Source of the DNA: Patescibacteria group bacterium | Lineage (GTDB): Bacteria > Patescibacteriota > Patescibacteriia > Buchananbacterales > UBA6539 | Assembly (NCBI GenBank): GCA_041649675.1 | Contig: JBAZMQ010000001.1 | Span: 253 to 64,252 of the forward strand | Length of the DNA: 64,000 nucleotides | Direction of reading: 5' to 3' | In this document: positions 2,563-55,025 of the stretch, one piece after another | Layout: every line of letters begins with the position of its first letter | How positions within the stretch are numbered: position 1 is the first letter of the stretch | Position numbers and translations under genes: made by a program | Notes under the pieces: model-generated | Seen by the model: the letters and a program-made list of their open reading frames with translations, nothing else | Told to the model about the DNA's origin: nothing | Databases searched by the model: none

Positions 2563-3015
2563 ATGGCATATTCACAAAAAGTAATGGATCATTTTAAAAA
2601 TCCTCATAACCAGGGTCAGATTCAAGATGCGTCAACAATTGGTGAGGTGGGCAATCCTCTTTGTGGTGATATGATGAAAATTTATCTTAAAATTGATCAT
2701 CAGCCGTCAACCGTTGATTATTTAGACGATACAATTACTGATATTAAGTTTGAGACCCTGGGTTGCGCTGCCGCTATTGCTTGTTCGTCAGTTTCAACCG
2801 ACATGGTCAAAGGCAAGACTCTGCGCGAGGCTTTTGGTTTGGAAAAAAAGGATATTGTTAATGAACTAGGAGAATTGCCGCCGGTAAAATTGCATTGTTC
2901 GGTTTTAGCGTCCGATGGTTTGAAAGTAGCCATTAAGAATTATTTACAAAATCAAGGAGTTTTAGAAGATTATCCAGAGGTTAAATCGTTCAAAATTGAA
3001 GATAATTTGCACTAG
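2563..3015 (+). CDS. iscU: Fe-S cluster assembly scaffold IscU/NifU N-terminal domain
   Basis: MAYSQKVMDHFKNPHNQG...PLCGDMMK...LGCAAAIACSS...LHCSV: the three conserved Cys motifs of IscU. Confidence 0.9.
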   Translation: MAYSQKVMDHFKNPHNQGQIQDASTIGEVGNPLCGDMMKIYLKIDHQPSTVDYLDDTITDIKFETLGCAAAIACSSVSTDMVKGKTLREAFGLEKKDIVNELGELPPVKLHCSVLASDGLKVAIKNYLQNQGVLEDYPEVKSFKIEDNLH

Positions 3016-3073
3016 CTTTTAGCTGGTAGCTTGTAGCTTGTAGGATTCTACCAGTTACAAGCTAAAAGCTAAT
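3014..3073. repeat. intergenic palindromic repeat family A (TTAGCTGGTAGCTTGTAGC / AGCTAAAAGCT), copy 1
   Basis: agcttttagctggtagcttgtagcttgtag...ccagttacaagctaaaagcta; related copies lie immediately upstream of murB (22319-22350) and rplJ (39897-39955). Confidence 0.5.
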
Positions 3074-3082
3074 AGTAAAATT

Positions 3083-3307
3083 ATGAAAGATGAAGTTAAA
3101 AAAGTTTTAGATGAAATCAGACCTAATTTGCAGGCCGATGGCGGCGATGTTGAGTTAGTGGAAGTTGATGAAAAATCTGGCGTCGTTAAAGTCCGGTTGC
3201 AAGGTGCCTGCCAGGGTTGTCCAATGTCACAAATGACTTTAAAGGAAGGGATTGGTCGGGCTTTAAAGAATAAGGTTGCAGGTTTTAAGGATATCGAGTC
3301 AGTTTAG
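3083..3307 (+). CDS. NifU C-terminal (Nfu-like) Fe-S cluster domain protein
   Basis: 74 aa with CQGCPMS CxxC motif typical of the Nfu/NifU C-terminal domain; encoded separately from the IscU domain. Confidence 0.85.
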   Translation: MKDEVKKVLDEIRPNLQADGGDVELVEVDEKSGVVKVRLQGACQGCPMSQMTLKEGIGRALKNKVAGFKDIESV

Positions 3308-3328
3308 ATGAGTAAAGGCAAGTATAAA

Positions 3329-3412
3329 AAATTAAGAAATTAAGAAAATAAAAGATTAAAGCCAAGCTAGTTTTAATTTCTTAATTTATTAATTTTTTAT
3401 TTTCTTAAATTC
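3329..3412. repeat. AT-rich inverted repeat family B (AATTAAGAAAT / ATTTCTTAATT), copy 1
   Basis: aaattaagaaattaagaaaat...aatttcttaatttattaattttttattttcttaaattc between nfu and iscS; relatives at 16862-16892, 52051-52128 and 54930-55025. Confidence 0.45.
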
Positions 3413-3413
3413 T

Positions 3414-4583
3414 ATGTCTAGCCAAAAAATCTATTTTGATCATTCGGCAACAACGCCCGTTGATCGTGAAGTCTTAAAAGCGATGACACCATTTTTTACT
3501 GAAGTTTTTGGCAATGCTTCTTCGATTCACGCTTTTGGTCAGCAAGCAATTAAAGCGGTTGATGATTCAAGGGAAAAAATCGCGGATTTTTTGGGTTGTA
3601 AAACTAATGAAGTAATATTTACTTCTGGTGCCAGCGAGAGTGATAATATTGTAATTTTAGGTTTGGCTAAACCCAGGCAGCATATTATTACTTCAAAAAT
3701 TGAGCATCCGGCAATTTTAGAACCTTGTAGGGAAATGGAAAAACAGGGTGTTGAAGTAACTTATTTAGATGTTAACAAGAAAGGATTAGTTGAGCTAGAA
3801 TCGGTTAAAAAAGCGATTAAGGAAAACACAAAGCTAATTTCAATAATGTATGTTAATAACGAAATTGGTACGATTCAACCGATCAGTGAGATTGGGAAGT
3901 TGATAAAAAAAGAAAACCGAGAACGGAAATCAGAAAACAGAATTTATTTTCATACCGATGCGGTCCAGGCTACTAATTATTGCGAAATGAATGTTGATCA
4001 GCTTGGTGTTGATTTGGTTTCAATCTCTGGTCATAAGATTTATGCCCCCAAAGGGATTGGAGCACTGTATAAAAGAGCCGGTACGCCGATTAGACCAATT
4101 CAGTTTGGTGGTCACCAAGAATATGGTATTCGGCCCGGAACCTTGAATGTGCCTGGTATTGTTGGTCTAGGTAAAGCAGTTGAATTAATTTCCCAAAGCA
4201 AAAATGATAACGAAAAAATAAAAAAATTACGCGATAAATTAATTGCTGGAATTTTGGCTAAAATTCCTAACGCTATAGTTAATGGTGATTTAGAGAAACG
4301 AGTGCCAGCTAATGCTCATTTTAGTTTTAAAGGTGTAGAAGGGGAAAGTATGCTTTTATTGTTAGACCAGGAAGGCATTGCGGTTTCAACTGGCTCGGCT
4401 TGCTCTTCGGGTTCGTTAGAACCATCTGCCGTTTTAATGGCCTTAGGCATGGATCCACTTTTAGCCCATGGCAGTTTAAGAATAACTTTGGGGAAGTTTA
4501 ATACGGAAAAAGAAATTGATTGTCTGTTGGAAAAATTACCTCCAATTATTGAAAAATTAAGAAAAATTTCGCCAATAAAATAG
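3414..4583 (+). CDS. iscS: cysteine desulfurase (class V aminotransferase)
   Basis: SSIHAFGQQA, SGHKIYAPKGIGALY (PLP-Lys), C-terminal SGSACSS active-site Cys loop; 389 aa. Contains a short insertion KKENRERKSENR at 3912-3942. Confidence 0.93.
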   Translation: MSSQKIYFDHSATTPVDREVLKAMTPFFTEVFGNASSIHAFGQQAIKAVDDSREKIADFLGCKTNEVIFTSGASESDNIVILGLAKPRQHIITSKIEHPAILEPCREMEKQGVEVTYLDVNKKGLVELESVKKAIKENTKLISIMYVNNEIGTIQPISEIGKLIKKENRERKSENRIYFHTDAVQATNYCEMNVDQLGVDLVSISGHKIYAPKGIGALYKRAGTPIRPIQFGGHQEYGIRPGTLNVPGIVGLGKAVELISQSKNDNEKIKKLRDKLIAGILAKIPNAIVNGDLEKRVPANAHFSFKGVEGESMLLLLDQEGIAVSTGSACSSGSLEPSAVLMALGMDPLLAHGSLRITLGKFNTEKEIDCLLEKLPPIIEKLRKISPIK

Positions 4584-4592
4584 TTAGGGTAA

Positions 4593-4628
4593 TAAAAAAA
4601 AGACAGGTCAGCGCCTGTCTTTTTTTTA
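4593..4628. terminator. bidirectional rho-independent terminator
   Basis: A-run, agacagg-tcagcg-cctgtct hairpin (4601-4620), T-run; lies between convergent iscS and the pilus-operon end. Confidence 0.6.
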
Positions 4629-4635
4629 TTACTAA

Positions 4636-4968
4636 TCAATCAATGCCTTGAATCGTTTGTTTATTTGGTAAGTTGGCGGTGAATGGATTTTTAATCTCAG
4701 CCCAGTTGATTTTGTCGGGGGCGGAAAATTTTTTATCTAGCGCTGTCAGCGCTGTTCTGAATTTTTCAACGTTAATTGTGTAGGGTGATACCTCGGCTCG
4801 TAAAACAACAATTTCTTGTGATTGAGTGATAGTTTGGTAGAAATTTTTGTATAGAAATAAACTCAGAAATCCAATACTAATCAAAAATGTTATTAGAATA
4901 ACAATCGTAATAATTCTAGCTGAAGCCAGGAGTTTAATTATTCTTTGTATTAATTGCTTTATTTTCAT
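4636..4968 (-). CDS. hypothetical single-pass membrane protein (last gene of the pilus operon)
   Basis: 110 aa, N-terminal TM helix; operon context with pilO. Confidence 0.5.
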   Translation of the reverse strand: MKIKQLIQRIIKLLASARIITIVILITFLISIGFLSLFLYKNFYQTITQSQEIVVLRAEVSPYTINVEKFRTALTALDKKFSAPDKINWAEIKNPFTANLPNKQTIQGID

Positions 4969-4974
4969 ACCGGT

Positions 4975-5511
4975 TTATTTTTTTTCGGTATTAGATTGAG
5001 TAAAGGCATTGCTGTAAAGGGTGGCAGTGATTGAATCTTTCTCGGCATTAAACTGTAAGTTAGTAATATTTAAATAATAGTTAAGCTTTTCTAGTCCAGT
5101 TAAGTATTTCATTATCTGATAAAAATTGCCTTGAATTGTCATTTTGATTGGCAAGACTTGTAGATCGCCAGTTTTGGTGGTGCTTTGGGTATTTAATTCA
5201 AGATTTTGTTTGACACCGTTGGTGCTGGCAACATCTTCAAGGGTAGAAATAAATTTTAATTCATTTCCCTGGGGAATAAAAACTGTATTGAGTTTATCTT
5301 TTTGCGGTTTTATTTCTTCAAAATCGTTAACAGTTTTTTTTAATAGTTGCCCCCTTAAATATTTTTTTTCCAAATCGACTCTCTCAGCGTAAATAGCATT
5401 GCTGATTTTTTTTATATCATGGATAGTTGGGATTATAACCAAACCAGCAACTAAGCCAATAATGATAACGAAAAGTAGAATTGAAATAATTATCTTTATT
5501 TTAAAATTCAT
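4975..5511 (-). CDS. pilO: type IV pilus assembly protein PilO-like
   Basis: 178 aa, N-terminal TM helix then coiled-coil then C-terminal domain; position downstream of pilN. Confidence 0.55.
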   Translation of the reverse strand: MNFKIKIIISILLFVIIIGLVAGLVIIPTIHDIKKISNAIYAERVDLEKKYLRGQLLKKTVNDFEEIKPQKDKLNTVFIPQGNELKFISTLEDVASTNGVKQNLELNTQSTTKTGDLQVLPIKMTIQGNFYQIMKYLTGLEKLNYYLNITNLQFNAEKDSITATLYSNAFTQSNTEKK

Positions 5512-6074
5512 AAGTTTGCTAGTTGGTCAAGGTTGATTTTACCCTCAACTTGAAAATCTATATTTTCTTTTTTTAGAAGGTAATCCAGAGGTATGTCAAT
5601 ATCAGAAAGGAGGGAAAAGCTTTCCAGATTGCTTTTGAATTTTAATAAATTATCTCGGGTTTTGGCAAAACCATTAATTATAATTTGATTTTCCTCGCTG
5701 CTTTCTATATTTAAATTATAAAGACTGACATTATCCGGAATAATTAAAATAAATTTATTCATAAAACTAGTCCAGCTAAAGTAGCTCCCTTGGATTTTAT
5801 TTACGAGTGATAGCTGTTTATTAAAGTTTTCAATATCGGTATTTAATATTCTGCCATATTTTGTGGTCAAAGTGCTATTAGCGACCACTTCATTAAAATT
5901 ATTTTGTAAAGTTATTTTTGCTATCATTAAAACTACGGCAATAAAAATTGTGAAAAGTAAAAAAATTATAGTTAAATTTTTTATGACAATATAAAACTGA
6001 CGGAGGTTTAGTTCTTCTTTTTTTTGCGGTGGGATTAAATTCAAACTAATCATCGGTGTTTTTCCTTTTGCCAT
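5508..6074 (-). CDS. pilN: type IV pilus assembly protein PilN-like
   Basis: 188 aa, single TM, follows pilM with overlapping stop/start. Confidence 0.55.
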   Translation of the reverse strand: MAKGKTPMISLNLIPPQKKEELNLRQFYIVIKNLTIIFLLFTIFIAVVLMIAKITLQNNFNEVVANSTLTTKYGRILNTDIENFNKQLSLVNKIQGSYFSWTSFMNKFILIIPDNVSLYNLNIESSEENQIIINGFAKTRDNLLKFKSNLESFSLLSDIDIPLDYLLKKENIDFQVEGKINLDQLANL

Positions 6075-16861: not shown

Positions 16862-17001
16862 AAGAATCAAGAATTATGAATTATGAATAAAGAAGAAAAC
16901 AATTTTGTCTATATTAAAAAAGAAAAAGCCCTCCGGACAGAGACGGAAACTCCTCAAGACTTTTTTTTAATGATAATATATTGTTATTAGTTTTTAATAA
17001 A

Positions 17002-18456
17002 ATGGCCAACTTAAAGGGTAAAAAAGTTACAGTAATGGGTTTGGGACTCCACGGCGGCGGAGTCGCTTCTGTTAATTGGTTGGTAAAACATGGCGCTAAA
17101 GTGACCGTGACTGATTTAAAAACGGCTAAGGAATTAAAATTATCACTTAAAAAACTTAATAACTTATCAAAATGTAAACTGGTATTGGGCCGACACCGAG
17201 AGATTGACTTTAGGAATGCTGACATAATCGTGCAAAATCCGGATGTGCCCAAAGAGTCAAAATATTTAAAAATTGCCAAGAAGGCCGGTATTTTGATTGA
17301 AAATGAAGCCAGTCTTTTTTTTAAAAATTGTGCGGCAAAGATTGTTGGGGTAACTGGCACTCGCGGGAAATCAACTACCAGTACTTTGATTTATGAAATA
17401 TTAAATAAATCAGAGATCAGAAATCAGAGATCAGAAATCAGAGATCAGAAATCAGAGATCAGAAATCAGAGATCAGAAATCAGAATCTGGCTGGCTGGTC
17501 AGCCCCAGCAGCCGATGATGGCGATTTTGGATAAGGTTAAAAAAAACGATTTGGTTGTTTTGGAACTTTCTTCCTGGCAGTTGGAAATATTGGGCCAGCA
17601 AAAATTAAGTCCACATGTTGCCATAGTTACCAATATCTATCCGGATCATTTGAATCGCTATTCTTCAATGGCCGGGTATATCACCGCTAAAAAAAATATT
17701 TTTAAATTTCAAAGTAAAAACGATTTTGTAATTTTAAATTTTGATAATACTCAAACCAAAAAGATGGGTCGCGAAGTTTTGAGCCAAAGATTTTGGTTTT
17801 CCAAAAAATATTTAGCTGATCAGAACAGTTGTTTTTTAAAAGGGGATTATATATATTTTCAACAAAATGGCAAAATAAGCAAACTGGTTAATCCAGAAAT
17901 TTCTAAATTAAAGGGTGAGCATAATTTGGAAAATATTTTAGCCGCCAGCGCAGTCGCTGGTATTTTTGGCGCTAAGCCAAAAGATATCCAAAATGGTCTG
18001 AAGAATTTTTTTGGCTTGCCCGGAAGAATTGAATTGATCAGAACAGTTAAAGGTATAAAATATATCAATGATACAACGGCAACTACGCCTGACGGAACAA
18101 TGGCAGCGCTTAAGGCTTTGCCGGCAAAAAAGATAGTTTTAATCGCCGGCGGCACTTCAAAAAATATTCCCGATTTTAAATATCGGGAATTAGCCAAAAT
18201 AATTAGTCAACGATGCAGGGCTGTAGTTTTATTACCTGGTGGCGGCAGTGATCAAATTCTAAAGGTCTTAAGCCGGGTTAACTTTAAACCAGTTGTTTAT
18301 CATACCGCTGACATGGTGCAGGCAGTTACTTTGGCCGCCAGCTTGGCCAAAAACAATGATATTGTTTTGTTGTCGCCAGCTTGTGCTTCTTTTAATATTT
18401 TTATCAATGAGTTTGACCGTGGTGATAAATTTAATCAGGTAGTAGCAAAATTATGA
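17002..18456 (+). CDS. murD: UDP-N-acetylmuramoylalanine--D-glutamate ligase
   Basis: KGKKVTVMGLGLHGGG Rossmann N-terminus, GTRGKSTTSTL P-loop, Mur ligase C-domain. Track start 16981; ATG 17002 (MANLKGKK) fits the MurD N-terminus better. Carries an in-frame heptanucleotide repeat insert. Confidence 0.9.
   Translation: MANLKGKKVTVMGLGLHGGGVASVNWLVKHGAKVTVTDLKTAKELKLSLKKLNNLSKCKLVLGRHREIDFRNADIIVQNPDVPKESKYLKIAKKAGILIENEASLFFKNCAAKIVGVTGTRGKSTTSTLIYEILNKSEIRNQRSEIRDQKSEIRNQRSEIRIWLAGQPQQPMMAILDKVKKNDLVVLELSSWQLEILGQQKLSPHVAIVTNIYPDHLNRYSSMAGYITAKKNIFKFQSKNDFVILNFDNTQTKKMGREVLSQRFWFSKKYLADQNSCFLKGDYIYFQQNGKISKLVNPEISKLKGEHNLENILAASAVAGIFGAKPKDIQNGLKNFFGLPGRIELIRTVKGIKYINDTTATTPDGTMAALKALPAKKIVLIAGGTSKNIPDFKYRELAKIISQRCRAVVLLPGGGSDQILKVLSRVNFKPVVYHTADMVQAVTLAASLAKNNDIVLLSPACASFNIFINEFDRGDKFNQVVAKL
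17411..17487 (+). repeat. tandem heptanucleotide repeat (CAGAGAT/CAGAAAT, about 11 units) inside murD
   Basis: cagagatcagaaat repeated; translates in frame as SEIRNQR SEIRDQK SEIRNQR SEIR, inserted after the P-loop. Confidence 0.9.
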
Positions 18457-27135: not shown

Positions 27136-27329
27136 AATTTAATATATTATTAAAACGTTGCTCGTCTGCCGAGTTTACGAAAGACAAAGTCGCAGATTCA
27201 GCAGACGAGCAGGCGAGAAAAATCGATTGGGCAAAAGCTCCCCAGTCTCCTACTAACCCCTGCGGTTAACCATAGAAATATAAATAGTGTAATAGAGACA
27301 AAATTTAGGAGAAACTAATTAATATAGTT

Positions 27330-27436
27330 CCTCTCTCCGTTCTCGGAGAGAGGACAGGAGTGAGGCAACAAACTCCGTAACCTCACCCGGTCTCTTGGCT
27401 TCGCTTAAGGACCACCCTCTCCGTCTTCGGAGAGGG
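27330..27436. repeat. GC-rich hairpin repeat cluster (copies H1 and H2 plus gtaacctcaccc box)
   Basis: cctctctccg-ttct-cggagagagg (27330-27353); gtgagg...cctcac; gtaacctcaccc (27378-27389); ccctctccg-tctt-cggagaggg (27415-27436). Related copies at 29603-29626 and 30007-30043. Confidence 0.5.
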
Positions 27437-27477
27437 AAGATAATAAAGGTATAAGCAGTGCCATGGAAAGTAGAACT

Positions 27478-31149: not shown

Positions 31150-32061
31150 ATGCCTGAGCTACCTGAAGTTGAAACTTTACGCCGAGAGTTAAATTCAATA
31201 ATCAAAGGTAAGGTAATCAAATCTGCGGTTTGCAATTGGCCAAAGATGGTTAAGCCATTGACGGTTTTGGAATTTCAAAATCAAATTAAGAATAAAAAAA
31301 TTACAGACATAAAAAGAAAAGCTAAAGTTTTAATTTTAGATCTTGCCGGTCCGTTGTCGCTTTTGATCCATCTTAAGCTAACTGGACAGTTGATTTACAG
31401 AGATAAGAAAACAGAGAACAGAAATCAGAGGCTTGTTGTTGGGGGGCATCCGCTGCCGCTTCGTTCCAGCGAGACAAATCCTCAAAAAGGTGGTAGCAAT
31501 GGTTTACCGAATAAATTTACTCATTTGACTTTGAATTTTAGCGATGGTTCAAAACTATTTTTTAATGATTTGCGGAAATTCGGTTGGGCAAAGCTAGTTG
31601 ATGATTCAGGTTTGGCTGAAGTGATTGAAAAACATGGACCCGAACCTTTAACTAAGGAGTTTACTTTCAAATATTTTTTAGCGATATTAAAAAAGTATCC
31701 GAACCGAAAAATTAAACAGATTCTATTGGATCAAAATTTAATTTCCGGTTTGGGCAATATTTATGCTGATGAAAGTTGTTTTTGGGCTAAAGTCAGGCCA
31801 ACCAGAGTTAATAAGACTTTAAAACCCGAAGAGATCAAAAAATTATTTTATTGTATTCCAAAGATTTTAAAGTTTGCCATTGGCAAAAAGGGGACATCGG
31901 CTAATACTTATGTTCGTTTGTCTGGCCAGCCTGGCGGCATGGAGCCGTATTTAAAAGTTTACGGCAGAAAAGGGGAGAAATGCCAGCGTTGCGGCGGGGT
32001 AGTGGAAAAAATAAAATTAAACGGCCGCGGGACGCATTTTTGTCCAAAGTGTCAGAAATAA
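31150..32061 (+). CDS. mutM: formamidopyrimidine-DNA glycosylase (Fpg/MutM)
   Basis: MPELPEVETLRREL catalytic N-terminus, H2TH, C-terminal zinc finger CQRCGG...CPKC. Track start 31141 is a TTG. Contains an insertion relative to canonical Fpg around 31407-31431 (KKTENRNQR...). Confidence 0.92.
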   Translation: MPELPEVETLRRELNSIIKGKVIKSAVCNWPKMVKPLTVLEFQNQIKNKKITDIKRKAKVLILDLAGPLSLLIHLKLTGQLIYRDKKTENRNQRLVVGGHPLPLRSSETNPQKGGSNGLPNKFTHLTLNFSDGSKLFFNDLRKFGWAKLVDDSGLAEVIEKHGPEPLTKEFTFKYFLAILKKYPNRKIKQILLDQNLISGLGNIYADESCFWAKVRPTRVNKTLKPEEIKKLFYCIPKILKFAIGKKGTSANTYVRLSGQPGGMEPYLKVYGRKGEKCQRCGGVVEKIKLNGRGTHFCPKCQK

Positions 32062-50310: not shown

Positions 50311-52050
50311 ATGGCATTCTACTCACCAAAAAAAATAGAGCCGGCAAAAAGTAATTTGAATATTAGAATGATATTTTTGCTGCTGGTTATTTTTTTTGTT
50401 GGTGTAGTAATTATTTTTCGGTTATTTAGCTTGCAAATATTGCAGCATTCTTTTTATAATACCTTAGCTTCGCAAGAGCATGAAACTTACAAAGATTTGC
50501 TGGCGGAAAGAGGCTCAATTTATACTAAAGAAAAAGATCAGTTATATCCTTTGGTCACTAACCGCGGCTATTATTTAATTTATGCTGAACCAATCAGAAT
50601 TGAAAAACCTAATGAGGTAACTAATGCCATTGCATCAATATTAAATTTTACTGATTCTGAAAAGCAGGAGTTACTTGCTCGGCTAAGTAAAACTAATGAT
50701 GTCTATGAACCGATTAAACATAAAATTACTTTGGCCCAAGTTGATCAAATTAAGAATTTAAAATTAGCGGGCATTGGTTTTGCACCAGAAAGTTATCGTT
50801 TTTATCCGGAAAAGGGCATTGGTGGACATGTTTTTGGGTTTATTGGTTTTAAAGATGACAAAAAAGTTGGCGAGTATGGTTTGGAAGGCTATTTTGATCA
50901 GGAGTTATCCGGTCAGCCGGGTTTGATTAAAGCGGCTAAAGACGCTTTGGGCTCAATTATCACTGTTGGTCAGCGATCAGTCAAAAAAGCCGAAAATGGC
51001 TCGGACTTAGTTTTAACCATTGACCGGCAAATTCAATTCGTGGCTTGCCAGAAGCTAAAAGAATTTGCCGATAAATTCAAAGCCGATGGCGGTAGCGTTG
51101 TGATTATGGCGCCAACTGGTGAAATATTAGCTATGTGTGGTTTGCCGGATTTTGATCCTGACAATTATCAAGACACTGAAGATATTAACGCTTTTAACAA
51201 CCCAGTAATTTTTTCAGCTTACGAGCCGGGCTCAGTTTTTAAAGGTATTACCATGGCAGCCGGTTTAGATTCGGGTGCGGTTGATATCAATACCACCTAT
51301 GAAGATACCGGTGAAGTTAAAATTGGCGGATTTACAATTAAAAATTCTGACTTGAAAGCGCACGGTAAAACGACGATGGTTGGGATTTTGGAAAAATCTT
51401 TAAATACAGGCGCAATTTTTGTTGAGCAGAAAGTTGGTAAAACAACTTTTGAAAATTATGTCAGGAATTTTGGCTTCGGAAAGCTGACTGGTATAACTTT
51501 AGAAAAGGAAGTGCCGGGTGATCTTTCTGCCTTAAGCAAGCCAGGTGAAATTTACGGCATGACCGCTTCGTATGGCCAAGGAATCATGGTAACGCCAATC
51601 CAATTAGTAGCCGCTTATGGTGCAATTGCCAATCAGGGCAAATTATATAAACCATACATTGTTTCAGAAATTATAAATCCTAATGGCCAAAAACAAACAT
51701 TTGGCCCTCAATCGGTCAGGCAAGTAATTTCACCCAAGGCCGCTTCATTGCTGACAGGAATGCTAACTTCGGTGGTTGAACATGGTTATGGCCAGTTAGC
51801 TGGTAATAAAGGCTACTATTTTGCCGGTAAGACCGGAACGGCTCAAGTGGCTTCGCCTGGCGGTGGTTATGGCAGTAAAACCAACCATACTTTTGTCGGG
51901 TTTGGCCCAATTTCTAAGCCAGCTTTCATTATGGTCACTGTCCTTAATAATCCCAAAGGCGTTAAGTTTGCCGAAAGTAGCGCTACGCCACTTTTTGGTC
52001 AGATTGCCCAATTTTTGTTAAACTATTATCAGATTAAGCCAGATTATTAA
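50311..52050 (+). CDS. ftsI: penicillin-binding protein 2 / FtsI (class B PBP transpeptidase)
   Basis: N-terminal TM, PBP dimerisation domain, SVFK (SxxK), SLN (SxN) and KTGTAQ (KTG) motifs; 579 aa. Confidence 0.9.
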   Translation: MAFYSPKKIEPAKSNLNIRMIFLLLVIFFVGVVIIFRLFSLQILQHSFYNTLASQEHETYKDLLAERGSIYTKEKDQLYPLVTNRGYYLIYAEPIRIEKPNEVTNAIASILNFTDSEKQELLARLSKTNDVYEPIKHKITLAQVDQIKNLKLAGIGFAPESYRFYPEKGIGGHVFGFIGFKDDKKVGEYGLEGYFDQELSGQPGLIKAAKDALGSIITVGQRSVKKAENGSDLVLTIDRQIQFVACQKLKEFADKFKADGGSVVIMAPTGEILAMCGLPDFDPDNYQDTEDINAFNNPVIFSAYEPGSVFKGITMAAGLDSGAVDINTTYEDTGEVKIGGFTIKNSDLKAHGKTTMVGILEKSLNTGAIFVEQKVGKTTFENYVRNFGFGKLTGITLEKEVPGDLSALSKPGEIYGMTASYGQGIMVTPIQLVAAYGAIANQGKLYKPYIVSEIINPNGQKQTFGPQSVRQVISPKAASLLTGMLTSVVEHGYGQLAGNKGYYFAGKTGTAQVASPGGGYGSKTNHTFVGFGPISKPAFIMVTVLNNPKGVKFAESSATPLFGQIAQFLLNYYQIKPDY

Positions 52051-52128
52051 GAATTAAGAATTTAGAATTACGAATTATGTTTGACTCTTAATTCTAAATT
52101 CATAATTCTTAATTCATAATCTCAATTC
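52051..52128. repeat. AT-rich inverted repeat family B, copy 3
   Basis: gaattaagaatttagaattacgaatt...aattcataattcttaattcataat. Confidence 0.45.
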
Positions 52129-53507: not shown

Positions 53508-54929
53508 ATGGAAAAACTTTTTTTGTATAATACTCTAGCGCGGAAAAAAGAGGAATTTAAGCCACTTAAAGATAAAGTGGTGACTTTTTATCAGTGCGGG
53601 CCAACGGTTTACTGGACCCAGCATATCGGTAATTTGCGGGCCATGGTGATGGCCGATTTGATTGAAAGGTCATTGGAATATTTAGGCTACAAAGTTAAAT
53701 TTGTTAGGAATTATACTGATGTTGGCCATTTAACTTCGGACGAGGACGAAGGTGAAGATAAAATTGAAAAAGGCGCTAAGCGTGAAGGACTTAAGCCTTT
53801 TGAGATTGCCAAAAAATATATTAAAATTTTTGAACAAGACGTTAAAGCTTTAGCTGTTTTGGAACCTTGGAAAAAACCAAAGGCAACTGAGTATATCTCA
53901 GAAATGCAAAAAATGGTCAAAGAGTTATTAGTCAAAGGTTATGCTTACGCAACTGACTTGGCGATTTATTTTGACGTGACTAAAGCCAAGGATTATACAA
54001 AACTTTCCGGTCAGGATTTAGAAAAAAACATCACTGACGCGGGTAAAGGTGAAATTAGTGATATAAATAAAAAACATCCAGCTGATTTCGCTTTGTGGTT
54101 TTTCAAAGCTGGGGTTCACCAAAATGCTTTGCAAACCTGGCCCAGTCCTTTTGAGTCAAAGTTGGTCGCTAAGGGTCAGGGTTTTCCGGGTTGGCATATT
54201 GAATGTTCGGCCATGGCCAAAAAATTATTAGGCGATACGCTTGATCTTCACATGGGCGGAGTTGAACATATTCCGGTGCACCATACCAATGAAATTGCCC
54301 AGTCCGAAGCGGCCAATGGGGTCAAATTCGTCAATTATTGGCTCCATAACGAGCATTTAACCGTTGATGGGGGCAAGATGGCCAAATCAGCCGGCACCAG
54401 CTATTCTTTGCAAGATATTAAAGACAAAGGTTTTGACCCAATGGCTTTGCGTTATTTATTTTTGCAGGCACATTATCGCTCCAAGCAAAATTTTACTTGG
54501 AAATCTTTAGCTGCCGCCCAAATCTCATTAAATGGTATACGAGATAGAATTTTAGATTATAAAAAAAGAAATGAGCAGGGAAAAATTAATGATGAATTTA
54601 GGGATAAATTTACGGAAGCATTAAAAGATGATTTTAATGTTCCTAAAGCATTAGCCATTACTTGGGATCTTTTAAAATCTGGTTTGGGTAATAATGATAA
54701 GCTTGCTACCTTTTTAGATTTTAATGAAGTTCTGGGTTTAAAAGTAGATTTAGGTAAAAATAAGGAGATAAAGATTCCTGAAAAAGTAATTGATTTGGCG
54801 GAAAAAAGATTGCAAGCCAGGGTGGCCAAAGATTGGCAGAAATCCGATGAAATTAGAAAGGAGATTGAAGCCCAAGGTTATTTAGTTGAGGATACTAAAG
54901 ACGGATATATTGTTAAGGATAAGAAATAA
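53508..54929 (+). CDS. cysS: cysteine--tRNA ligase
   Basis: LYNTLARKKEEFKP...YQCGPTVY..HIGN (HIGH) and KMAKSAGT (KMSKS); 473 aa. Confidence 0.93.
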   Translation: MEKLFLYNTLARKKEEFKPLKDKVVTFYQCGPTVYWTQHIGNLRAMVMADLIERSLEYLGYKVKFVRNYTDVGHLTSDEDEGEDKIEKGAKREGLKPFEIAKKYIKIFEQDVKALAVLEPWKKPKATEYISEMQKMVKELLVKGYAYATDLAIYFDVTKAKDYTKLSGQDLEKNITDAGKGEISDINKKHPADFALWFFKAGVHQNALQTWPSPFESKLVAKGQGFPGWHIECSAMAKKLLGDTLDLHMGGVEHIPVHHTNEIAQSEAANGVKFVNYWLHNEHLTVDGGKMAKSAGTSYSLQDIKDKGFDPMALRYLFLQAHYRSKQNFTWKSLAAAQISLNGIRDRILDYKKRNEQGKINDEFRDKFTEALKDDFNVPKALAITWDLLKSGLGNNDKLATFLDFNEVLGLKVDLGKNKEIKIPEKVIDLAEKRLQARVAKDWQKSDEIRKEIEAQGYLVEDTKDGYIVKDKK

Positions 54930-55025
54930 TTGAATTAGAAATTATGAATTAGGGATAAATAAAATTCTTAATTCCTAATTCTTAATTCCTAATTCTTAGT
55001 TCATAATTCTTAATTCCTAAGATAA
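54930..55025. repeat. AT-rich repeat family B, copy 4 (tandem ATTCTTAATTCCTA units)
   Basis: aattcttaattcctaattcttaattcctaattcttagttcataattcttaattcctaag. Confidence 0.45.

Follow-up and report, generated by a model that had tools for sequence, protein, structure and literature searches.

In many prokaryotes the commonest of the long simple repeats are heptanucleotide repeats, for which polymerase slippage is blamed in the passages of PMC4679880 and PMC4692102 that draw on Mrazek 2007, and favoured heptamers that have no known spreading mechanism, such as TAACTGA in Beggiatoaceae, GGGAATC in Xanthomonas and Nostoc and the cyanobacterial repeats, appear in passages of the same two papers. Inverted heptamer arrays that form stem-loops have also been described (PMC4692102). 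Within a gene, neuO of Escherichia coli K1 (carried by prophage CUS-3) contains (AAGACTC)n in its 5' coding region and yields full-length protein only if n is divisible by three; values of n from 3 to 53 occur, and 65.6% of genomes are in the OFF state (PMC13001214). The tetranucleotide repeats of Haemophilus influenzae are simple-sequence contingency loci of host-adapted pathogens (PMC2651432), and in Borg elements nucleotide tandem repeats within open reading frames (ORFs) create amino acid repeats and disordered regions, all of the units inside ORFs being divisible by three (PMC9879509). The locus described here is a heptanucleotide array inside the murD gene of an uncultured Patescibacteria group bacterium (GTDB Buchananbacterales, UBA6539), located in a stretch of 64,000 nucleotides (nt) that is referred to as the window (GCA_041649675.1, contig JBAZMQ010000001.1, positions 253 to 64,252 of the forward strand). 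With a probability of roughly 0.78, the array represents a tolerated surface-loop expansion that is produced by a genome-wide heptamer slippage bias and limited to steps that keep the reading frame.

The array consists of five copies of AAATCAG AGATCAG followed by AAATCAG and AATC, and is reported by Tandem Repeats Finder (TRF) with period 7 (11.3 copies, 86% match) and equally with period 14 (5.6 copies, 100% match, score 156). The original prediction, an earlier note on this DNA, had counted about 11 units over 77 nt within murD, which is right: in its cagagat/cagaaat register (17411-17487) there are 10 perfect alternating heptamers and an imperfect eleventh (cagaatc). Exact period-14 runs of this kind occur twice in the window versus none in 30 dinucleotide shuffles, and the array is not a chance product. 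Since a 7-nt unit does not fill whole codons, successive units are translated in each of the three phases in turn, giving a 7-residue peptide repeat, NK-SEIRNQR-SEIRDQK-SEIRNQR-SEIR-IWLAG, which is in frame with the forward-strand ORF (open from 16981 or 17002 to 18456) and agrees with the SEIRNQR/SEIRDQK translation proposed earlier. The unit is read through the codons AAA, TCA, GAG or GAA, ATC, AGA, AAT or GAT, and CAG (K/R-S-E-I-R-N/D-Q). The heptamer has no stop codon in any sense phase and encodes almost only polar residues, and the composition of the insert (R6 S4 E4 I4 Q3 N2 D1 K1) is what a T-poor, purine-rich heptamer must encode. The array starts 405 nt, or about 136 codons, into the ORF. 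It had been placed directly after the P-loop, and it is indeed near it, but the wording is slightly loose, as the array starts 10 codons past GTRGKSTT, where the next helix ends: the last Lys codon of that helix (AAA, 17407-17409) is also the start of the array.

The gene is murD and belongs to a complete peptidoglycan gene cluster. Its product has the three-domain architecture of a Mur ligase, with Pfam matches to PF21799 (MurD-like_N), PF08245 (Mur_ligase_M) and PF02875 (Mur_ligase_C) that are all above cut-offs, and a P-loop of the GxxGK(S/T) type, GTRGKSTT, that is invariant among 22 homologues. The protein is identical to NCBI MFA5021469.1, annotated as MurD on a Patescibacteria metagenome-assembled genome (MAG) contig of 173,776 bp, and the closest solved relative in a PDB search is MurD of Streptococcus agalactiae (3lk7, E 1e-49). 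A TTG codon at 16981, upstream of the start used by NCBI, is also open. The gene order is mraY-murD-ftsW-murG-murC-murB, which places murD between mraY and ftsW, with a penicillin-binding protein and further Mur ligases close by; no second murD is found within the window. MurD is essential in peptidoglycan-making bacteria. The GGNIG strand motif expected of MurD is replaced here by LAGQPQQP, and LAG(L/Q)PQ(K/Q)P occupies its place throughout the subclade (57 of the 118 aligned homologues); the replacement is a clade-wide variant that is not linked to the repeat.

The array is real and its length is polymorphic between near-identical genomes. A MEGAHIT contig from ENA (ERZ27247363:k141_3103547, 82 kb) differs from window positions 1-27469 by one single-nucleotide polymorphism (SNP; w11701), and its sole small indel relative to the window is the murD array, which is 42 nt shorter (36 versus 78 nt, or 5.3 versus 11.3 units), a difference of three 14-nt units, six heptamers or 14 amino acids (aa). 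The other heptamer arrays in the compared 28 kb are identical between the two. For two co-occurring species, taken as controls, the contigs of that ENA assembly and of JGI 3300029288 differ by 1 and 3 SNPs over 22 kb and have no indels. In total the array is found in three assemblies, namely the NCBI/JGI MAG, ENA MEGAHIT k141 and Logan. The Logan contig (k=31, SRR8542065) agrees with the window at 100% identity and has its start within the array, which is what an array longer than ~45 nt, or a heterogeneous one, would produce. The 26-nt left array junction had no match in JGI metagenome contigs, exact-protein look-ups with a 291-aa ORF and MraY gave no further allele, and look-ups with FtsW and a 123-aa ORF returned only the ENA contig and short Logan contigs, which end at or before the array and so give no array length. 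Past 27469 the ENA contig contains an extra ~194 nt relative to the window, the only other structural difference between the ENA and window assemblies; there is an extra diverged copy (9 mismatches) of a ~170-nt segment upstream of an asparaginase-like gene (L001 20256-20620 versus window 27299-27469).

A comparison with related genomes, which the original prediction had put forward as a check, reveals arrays at the same site. AAAWCAG arrays are present at the same MurD position in relatives of 62-68% protein identity, with a perfect (AAATCAG)x4 at the same codon position in L082, AAAACAG AAATCAG x2 in L083/L084, seven heptamer units in L085 and a decayed array in the GC-richer genome of L086/L087. 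The loop, counted between the P-loop and LAG(L/Q)P, measures 28 aa in P0001, P0005, P0012 and P0006 and 35 aa in P0003, compared with 20-21 aa in unexpanded relatives. It reaches 42 aa in the window, where the array accounts for the 21-aa excess. The excess over the baseline thus comes in steps of 7, 14 and 21 aa, 7 aa corresponding to three heptamers, and together with the 42-nt difference between the alleles this bears out the earlier arithmetic, in which three heptamers equal 21 nt and keep the frame. Across the LAG(L/Q)P subclade the loop ranges from 17 to 52 aa, versus a fixed 22 aa in GGNIG MurDs, and hypervariability of the loop is seen only in the former. Close relatives, including P0002 and P0028, have no insert, and L003 contains a different heptamer pair, AAATTCT/TAATTCA, at the same loop. 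In the unexpanded relatives single copies of the unit are present as Lys-Ser or Lys-Thr codons (AAA TCA A.., AAA ACA G..).

A perfect (AAATCAG)x4 is also located in the same post-P-loop loop of a much more distant protein, a GGNIG-type MurD that is 36% identical to the window protein (L103, JGI Ga0180007_10005873, reverse strand 812-839). Its array is in a different codon phase, which implies that it arose independently at this site. The array-bearing MurDs are scattered over at least three places of a neighbour-joining tree (no bootstrap), and the tree, which fits either one old array with losses or repeated gains, does not decide between them. No out-of-frame array is found in assembly consensus sequences among the two alleles and the arrays of L082, L083/L084, L085, L086/L087, L003 and L103, or among seven arrays in other MurD loops.

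MurD loops also contain other kinds of insertion. Long non-periodic inserts of 24-31 aa are present in the same loop of P0013, P0008, P0015 and P0021 (L002 2873-3010 and L004 858-992); the one in L002 has a perfect 8-bp stem (ATGCCGAA..TTCGGCAT) and short terminal inverted ends, a pattern that suggests a small hairpin element translated in frame. In-frame heptamer arrays are found in two other MurD loops, at residues ~360-380 and ~415-440, in the Patescibacteria loci L006, L008, L021, L037, L042 and L085, with perfect or near-perfect units of GAATTAC, CAAGCCC, TAAAAGC, GAAATTA, ACAAATC, ACTAATT and AAGCTAN.

An AlphaFold2 model built on the 118-sequence alignment has a mean predicted local distance difference test score (pLDDT) of 94.2 and a predicted template modelling score (pTM) of 0.92, and it matches E. 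coli MurD structures with template modelling (TM) scores of 0.90-0.91, normalised to the target. The model places, in order, a strand (113-118), the P-loop, a helix (123-135), the insert as a coil (~136-161) and the next strand (162-165). The two 10-residue blocks that cover the insert have average pLDDT values of 53 and 60, and the insert is predicted to be an unstructured excursion from an otherwise intact MurD fold. In alpha/beta folds of this type the ligand sites are at the C-terminal strand ends, and the loops that lead from a helix into a strand are on the other side; the insert should therefore point away from the ATP and UDP-N-acetylmuramoyl-alanine (UMA) sites, on the side of the central domain that faces away from the catalytic cleft. 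The modelling that had been proposed as a check, in which the insert is a low-confidence coil linking the P-loop helix to the strand that follows, supports, together with the hypervariability of the loop in the clade, the suggestion of a tolerated surface-loop expansion.

The murD array is not isolated in its genome. Compared with 40 block-wise dinucleotide shuffles, the window contains 19 TRF rows of period 7 versus 2.3 expected (maximum 7) and 8 of period 14 versus 0.7 expected; periods 8-11 are inside the shuffle range or at most twice the shuffle mean. In 77 other Patescibacteria murD loci (445 kb) there are 63 period-7 rows versus 17.4 expected. Most of the heptamer arrays in the window are intergenic, and among the translated ones the murD array is the longest; translated heptamer arrays are a regular feature of these Patescibacteria genomes. 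The same heptamers also recur at several loci: the AAGAATT class is located at 16862, 52046, 52089 and 54963 (18 matches versus 3.7 expected) and the AAAAGCT class at 3059, 22315 and 39928, as well as in L021, L077 and L085, and 6 exact-class pairs are found among the 19 arrays versus 0.37 expected from random genomic heptamers. An enrichment of period 7 over neighbouring periods and over shuffles, with the same heptamer at several loci, is what characterises the Mrazek-type repeats. The recurrence of specific heptamer classes is reminiscent of the favoured heptamers of cyanobacteria and Beggiatoaceae.

In intergenic spacers downstream of genes, at 3016-3075, 3324-3400, 52046-52113 and 54922-55020, a heptamer or octamer array precedes an array of its reverse complement. 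These pairs constitute the strongest inverted repeats of the window, with arms of 28-30 nt that are 82-93% complementary and, at 54922-55020, one arm enlarged to 8 units. Judged from sequence, they may be terminators or RNA-stability stem-loops built from tandem repeats.

Besides murD, two genes in the window contain translated arrays of a unit of the same family, ARAWCAG (Table 1). The one in the IscS/NifS cysteine desulfurase is a 6-aa insertion relative to PDB 9wep, located between a helix and the FHTDAVQ strand, and the one in Fpg/MutM lies inside a segment of ~34 aa that is missing from the PDB Fpg structure 1tdz. In the window the family has 13 matches versus 1.2 expected, covering all three coding arrays, and its arrays are found only on the sense strand of genes (IscS, MurD and Fpg).

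Table 1. Coordinates of the murD array, its gene and related heptamer arrays, as positions in the window
Feature	Position	Strand	Description	Basis
murD coding sequence	17002..18456	+	484 aa from the ATG used by NCBI	Pfam, PDB matches, MFA5021469.1, AlphaFold2
P-loop codons GTRGKSTT	17356..17379	+	Walker A ATP-binding motif of the Mur ligase central domain	
Codons STLIYEILNK	17380..17409	+	helix after the P-loop	AlphaFold2 helix 123-135
murD heptanucleotide array	17407..17485	+	(AAATCAG AGATCAG)x5.6	TRF, translation
Codons IWLAGQP	17485..17505	+	beta strand after the loop and clade LAG(L/Q)P motif	model strand 162-165, alignments
AAGAATT-type heptamer array	16862..16894	+	x4.7, mraY-murD spacer	TRF
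AAAACAG/AAATCAG array in IscS/NifS cysteine desulfurase	3906..3942	+	x5.3, in frame as KKENRERKSENR	TRF, translation
ACAGAGA/AAATCAG-type array in Fpg/MutM	31397..31430	+	x4.9, in frame as KTENRNQR	TRF, translation

Other interpretations of the array as a DNA or translational signal were set aside. A hairpin or slipped-structure element was dropped, since the array strand folds no better than chance (DNA fold z +1.47). A methylation-site reading was likewise dropped: GATC occurs at 5 sites inside the array, in a window with 135 observed versus 220 expected, and is absent from the orthologous arrays. Programmed frameshifting was rejected because the annotated frame runs straight through the array and homologues align on both sides of it.

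In the favoured mechanism, the murD array would be a local case of a genome-wide and phylum-wide excess of heptamers. A heptanucleotide microsatellite would have grown inside murD, between the P-loop helix and the next beta strand, probably seeded by ordinary Lys-Ser and Lys-Thr codons at the helix end (AAA TCA.., AAA ACA G..). Length changes would arise in whole 14-nt double units, through slippage during replication or through unequal recombination. As changes of 14 or 28 nt frameshift an essential gene, the 42-nt difference would represent a single three-unit event or its equivalent, and surviving jumps would be 42 nt, or 21 nt at the level of the heptamer, so that the array evolves in quanta of 7 aa. 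Such an array would be far more stable than a contingency repeat of equal length, yet would carry a load of lethal frameshifts. The extra peptide may be close to neutral, since it would lie on the face opposite the catalytic cleft.

Several points weigh against this slippage-based reading. The neutrality of the insert is assumed, its placement on the opposite face would follow from fold topology and secondary structure rather than from coordinates, the low pLDDT may reflect disorder or merely an uninformative alignment in that segment, and the E/R/Q/K-rich peptide could be helical. The 42-nt difference rests on two assemblies, which may come from the same or sister samples; one of the assemblers may have collapsed the repeat, with a chance of ~1/3 that a collapse among multiples of 14 is in frame, and the lengths are those of assembly consensus sequences, such that the variation is between assemblies and not within one population. 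Furthermore, both the recurrence of one unit at this loop in distant MurDs and the abundance of ARAWCAG in high-GC metagenome contigs exceed what simple local slippage predicts.

The last two points bear on an alternative in which copies of ARAWCAG, as a dispersed favoured heptamer, spread by an active or templated process and the murD loop is a landing site. The (ARAWCAG)x4 sequence is found at at least 120 loci in JGI metagenome contigs (L095-L214) with GC contents of 0.23-0.69 and, among the matches listed, up to 31 units; these matches include a UvrA-like gene (L182) and two PdxA-like genes (L126, L175) that share the position of their KSEIRNQKSEI. The loop peptide, searched against proteins, matched only short ORFs that consist of the repeat alone and come from many phyla (P0122-P0190); some of these are 'hypothetical proteins' recorded under Flavobacterium, Niabella, Pseudomonas aeruginosa and Yersinia enterocolitica, among other names. 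A literature search for the ARAWCAG repeat sequence itself gave no bacterial report. The membership of all three coding arrays of the window in one family, the distant MurD loop with the same unit and the recurrence of the AAGAATT and AAAAGCT classes within and between genomes would all fit dispersal. Against it, no mobile-element signature, target duplication or associated gene was seen, single-copy seeds are present at the site in unexpanded relatives, and the abundance of ARAWCAG was counted without a composition-matched control. A coding filter that admits only T-poor, purine-rich, stop-free units made of polar codons also predicts convergence; this filter accounts for convergence within genes, not for abundance in GC-rich contigs. 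On balance dispersal is an unlikely origin of the murD array, and its fuller version, in which the family spread across phyla by a templated mechanism, colonised loops of MurD, IscS, Fpg, PdxA and UvrA, and came to tune MurD through its repeat number in 7-aa quanta, is more doubtful still.

The insert might instead be functional, with the 7-aa repeat selected as a spacer or an interaction arm that reaches other division and cell-wall proteins, or as a rheostat of activity or stability, as for NeuO, the activity of which rises with repeat number according to earlier work as cited in PMC13001214. The persistence of arrays at this loop across species of 62-68% identity, their recurrence in the 36%-identical MurD and the expanded, variable loop of the whole LAG(L/Q)P clade are all compatible with selection. 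Close relatives that have no insert (P0002, P0028 and others) or unrelated non-periodic inserts (P0013, P0008, P0015) argue the other way, as do the lack of any conserved residue beyond what the DNA repeat dictates, the predicted low-confidence coil and the presence of similar arrays in unrelated enzymes, and a selected role is improbable.

The original prediction had also raised a phase-variable or contingency-like site. At such a site, 7- or 14-nt slippage would toggle murD at high frequency and yield a reversible cell-wall-less or growth-arrested subpopulation. The array does have the sequence hallmarks of phase-variable genes such as neuO (PMC13001214): a unit that is not divisible by three inside an ORF, a long and perfect repeat, and a repeat number that differs between near-identical genomes. 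It lacks the others, as all alleles and orthologous arrays are in frame in the consensus sequences with no OFF allele among them, versus 65.6% of neuO genomes out of frame (PMC13001214), and 42 nt is the smallest multiple of the 14-nt unit that keeps the frame. The gene itself is MurD, within the complete mraY-murD-ftsW-murG-murC-murB cluster and with no second copy in the window, rather than a dispensable surface, host-interaction or restriction-modification gene. The array is thus not supported as an on/off contingency switch, and toggling is very improbable. The idea that the array, or its length in the window, was made by an assembler deserves equally little credence. Tandem repeats are classic error sites, the two lengths come from different assemblers and the array interrupts the k=31 assembly. 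Even so, three independent assemblies contain the array, its 78 nt are shorter than the largest k-mers and reads of such assemblies, both lengths keep the frame, and arrays of the same unit are found at the same site in four other species from other ENA and JGI assemblies.

In the neighbourhood of the gene, the sister species of L086/L087 has EcoRI-like methylase, GmrSD/HNH and NYN-domain genes between mraY and murD (2987-5766), so that its division and cell-wall cluster appears, from the gene content, to be interrupted by defence-type genes.

If the slippage-based reading is right, the locus illustrates what becomes of a non-triplet slippage repeat in a gene that has to stay on: the repeat persists in perfect form and varies by rare three-unit jumps, the outcome being a ladder of 7-aa steps instead of ON/OFF switching. 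For the annotation of Patescibacteria it means that heptamer arrays are real and not assembly noise, that they create strain-level length variants of core enzymes and that they break short-k-mer assemblies; they also seem to supply these bacteria, whose proteomes are streamlined, with new disordered loops on a regular basis.

Both the translated heptamer array and the heptamer excess of prokaryotes are known phenomena, to which the murD case adds another member. In the literature searched there was no description of a heptamer-repeat excess in Patescibacteria, the group to which this small-genome organism belongs. The window resembles the described prokaryotic heptamer families in its period-7 excess, in the mostly intergenic location of its arrays, in units that recur at many loci and in some stem-loops made of reverse-complement pairs; it differs in that those families are mostly non-coding and under-represented in genes, whereas several arrays here are translated within conserved enzymes. 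With Borg repeats the murD array shares recent, perfect DNA repeats that add polar disordered segments, and a tendency of homologous proteins to carry repeats of similar composition. It departs from them in its 7-nt unit, with which single-unit changes are lethal frameshifts and the peptide period of 7 aa spans three DNA units. Contingency loci of the Haemophilus influenzae type are likewise non-triplet repeats inside ORFs that mutate by slippage, but they switch dispensable surface or restriction-modification genes ON and OFF, while murD is not dispensable and shows no OFF state. Of the known systems, neuO of E. coli K1 comes nearest: a stop-free 7-nt unit within its coding sequence is also read in three phases as a 7-aa repeat and varies in number between strains. 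The neuO array is 5'-terminal, where it forms an N-terminal extension, in a surface-modification gene that is phage-borne and non-essential, and mostly has OFF lengths; that of murD is internal (residues 136-161 of 484), belongs to an essential housekeeping enzyme and has been seen only at in-frame lengths.

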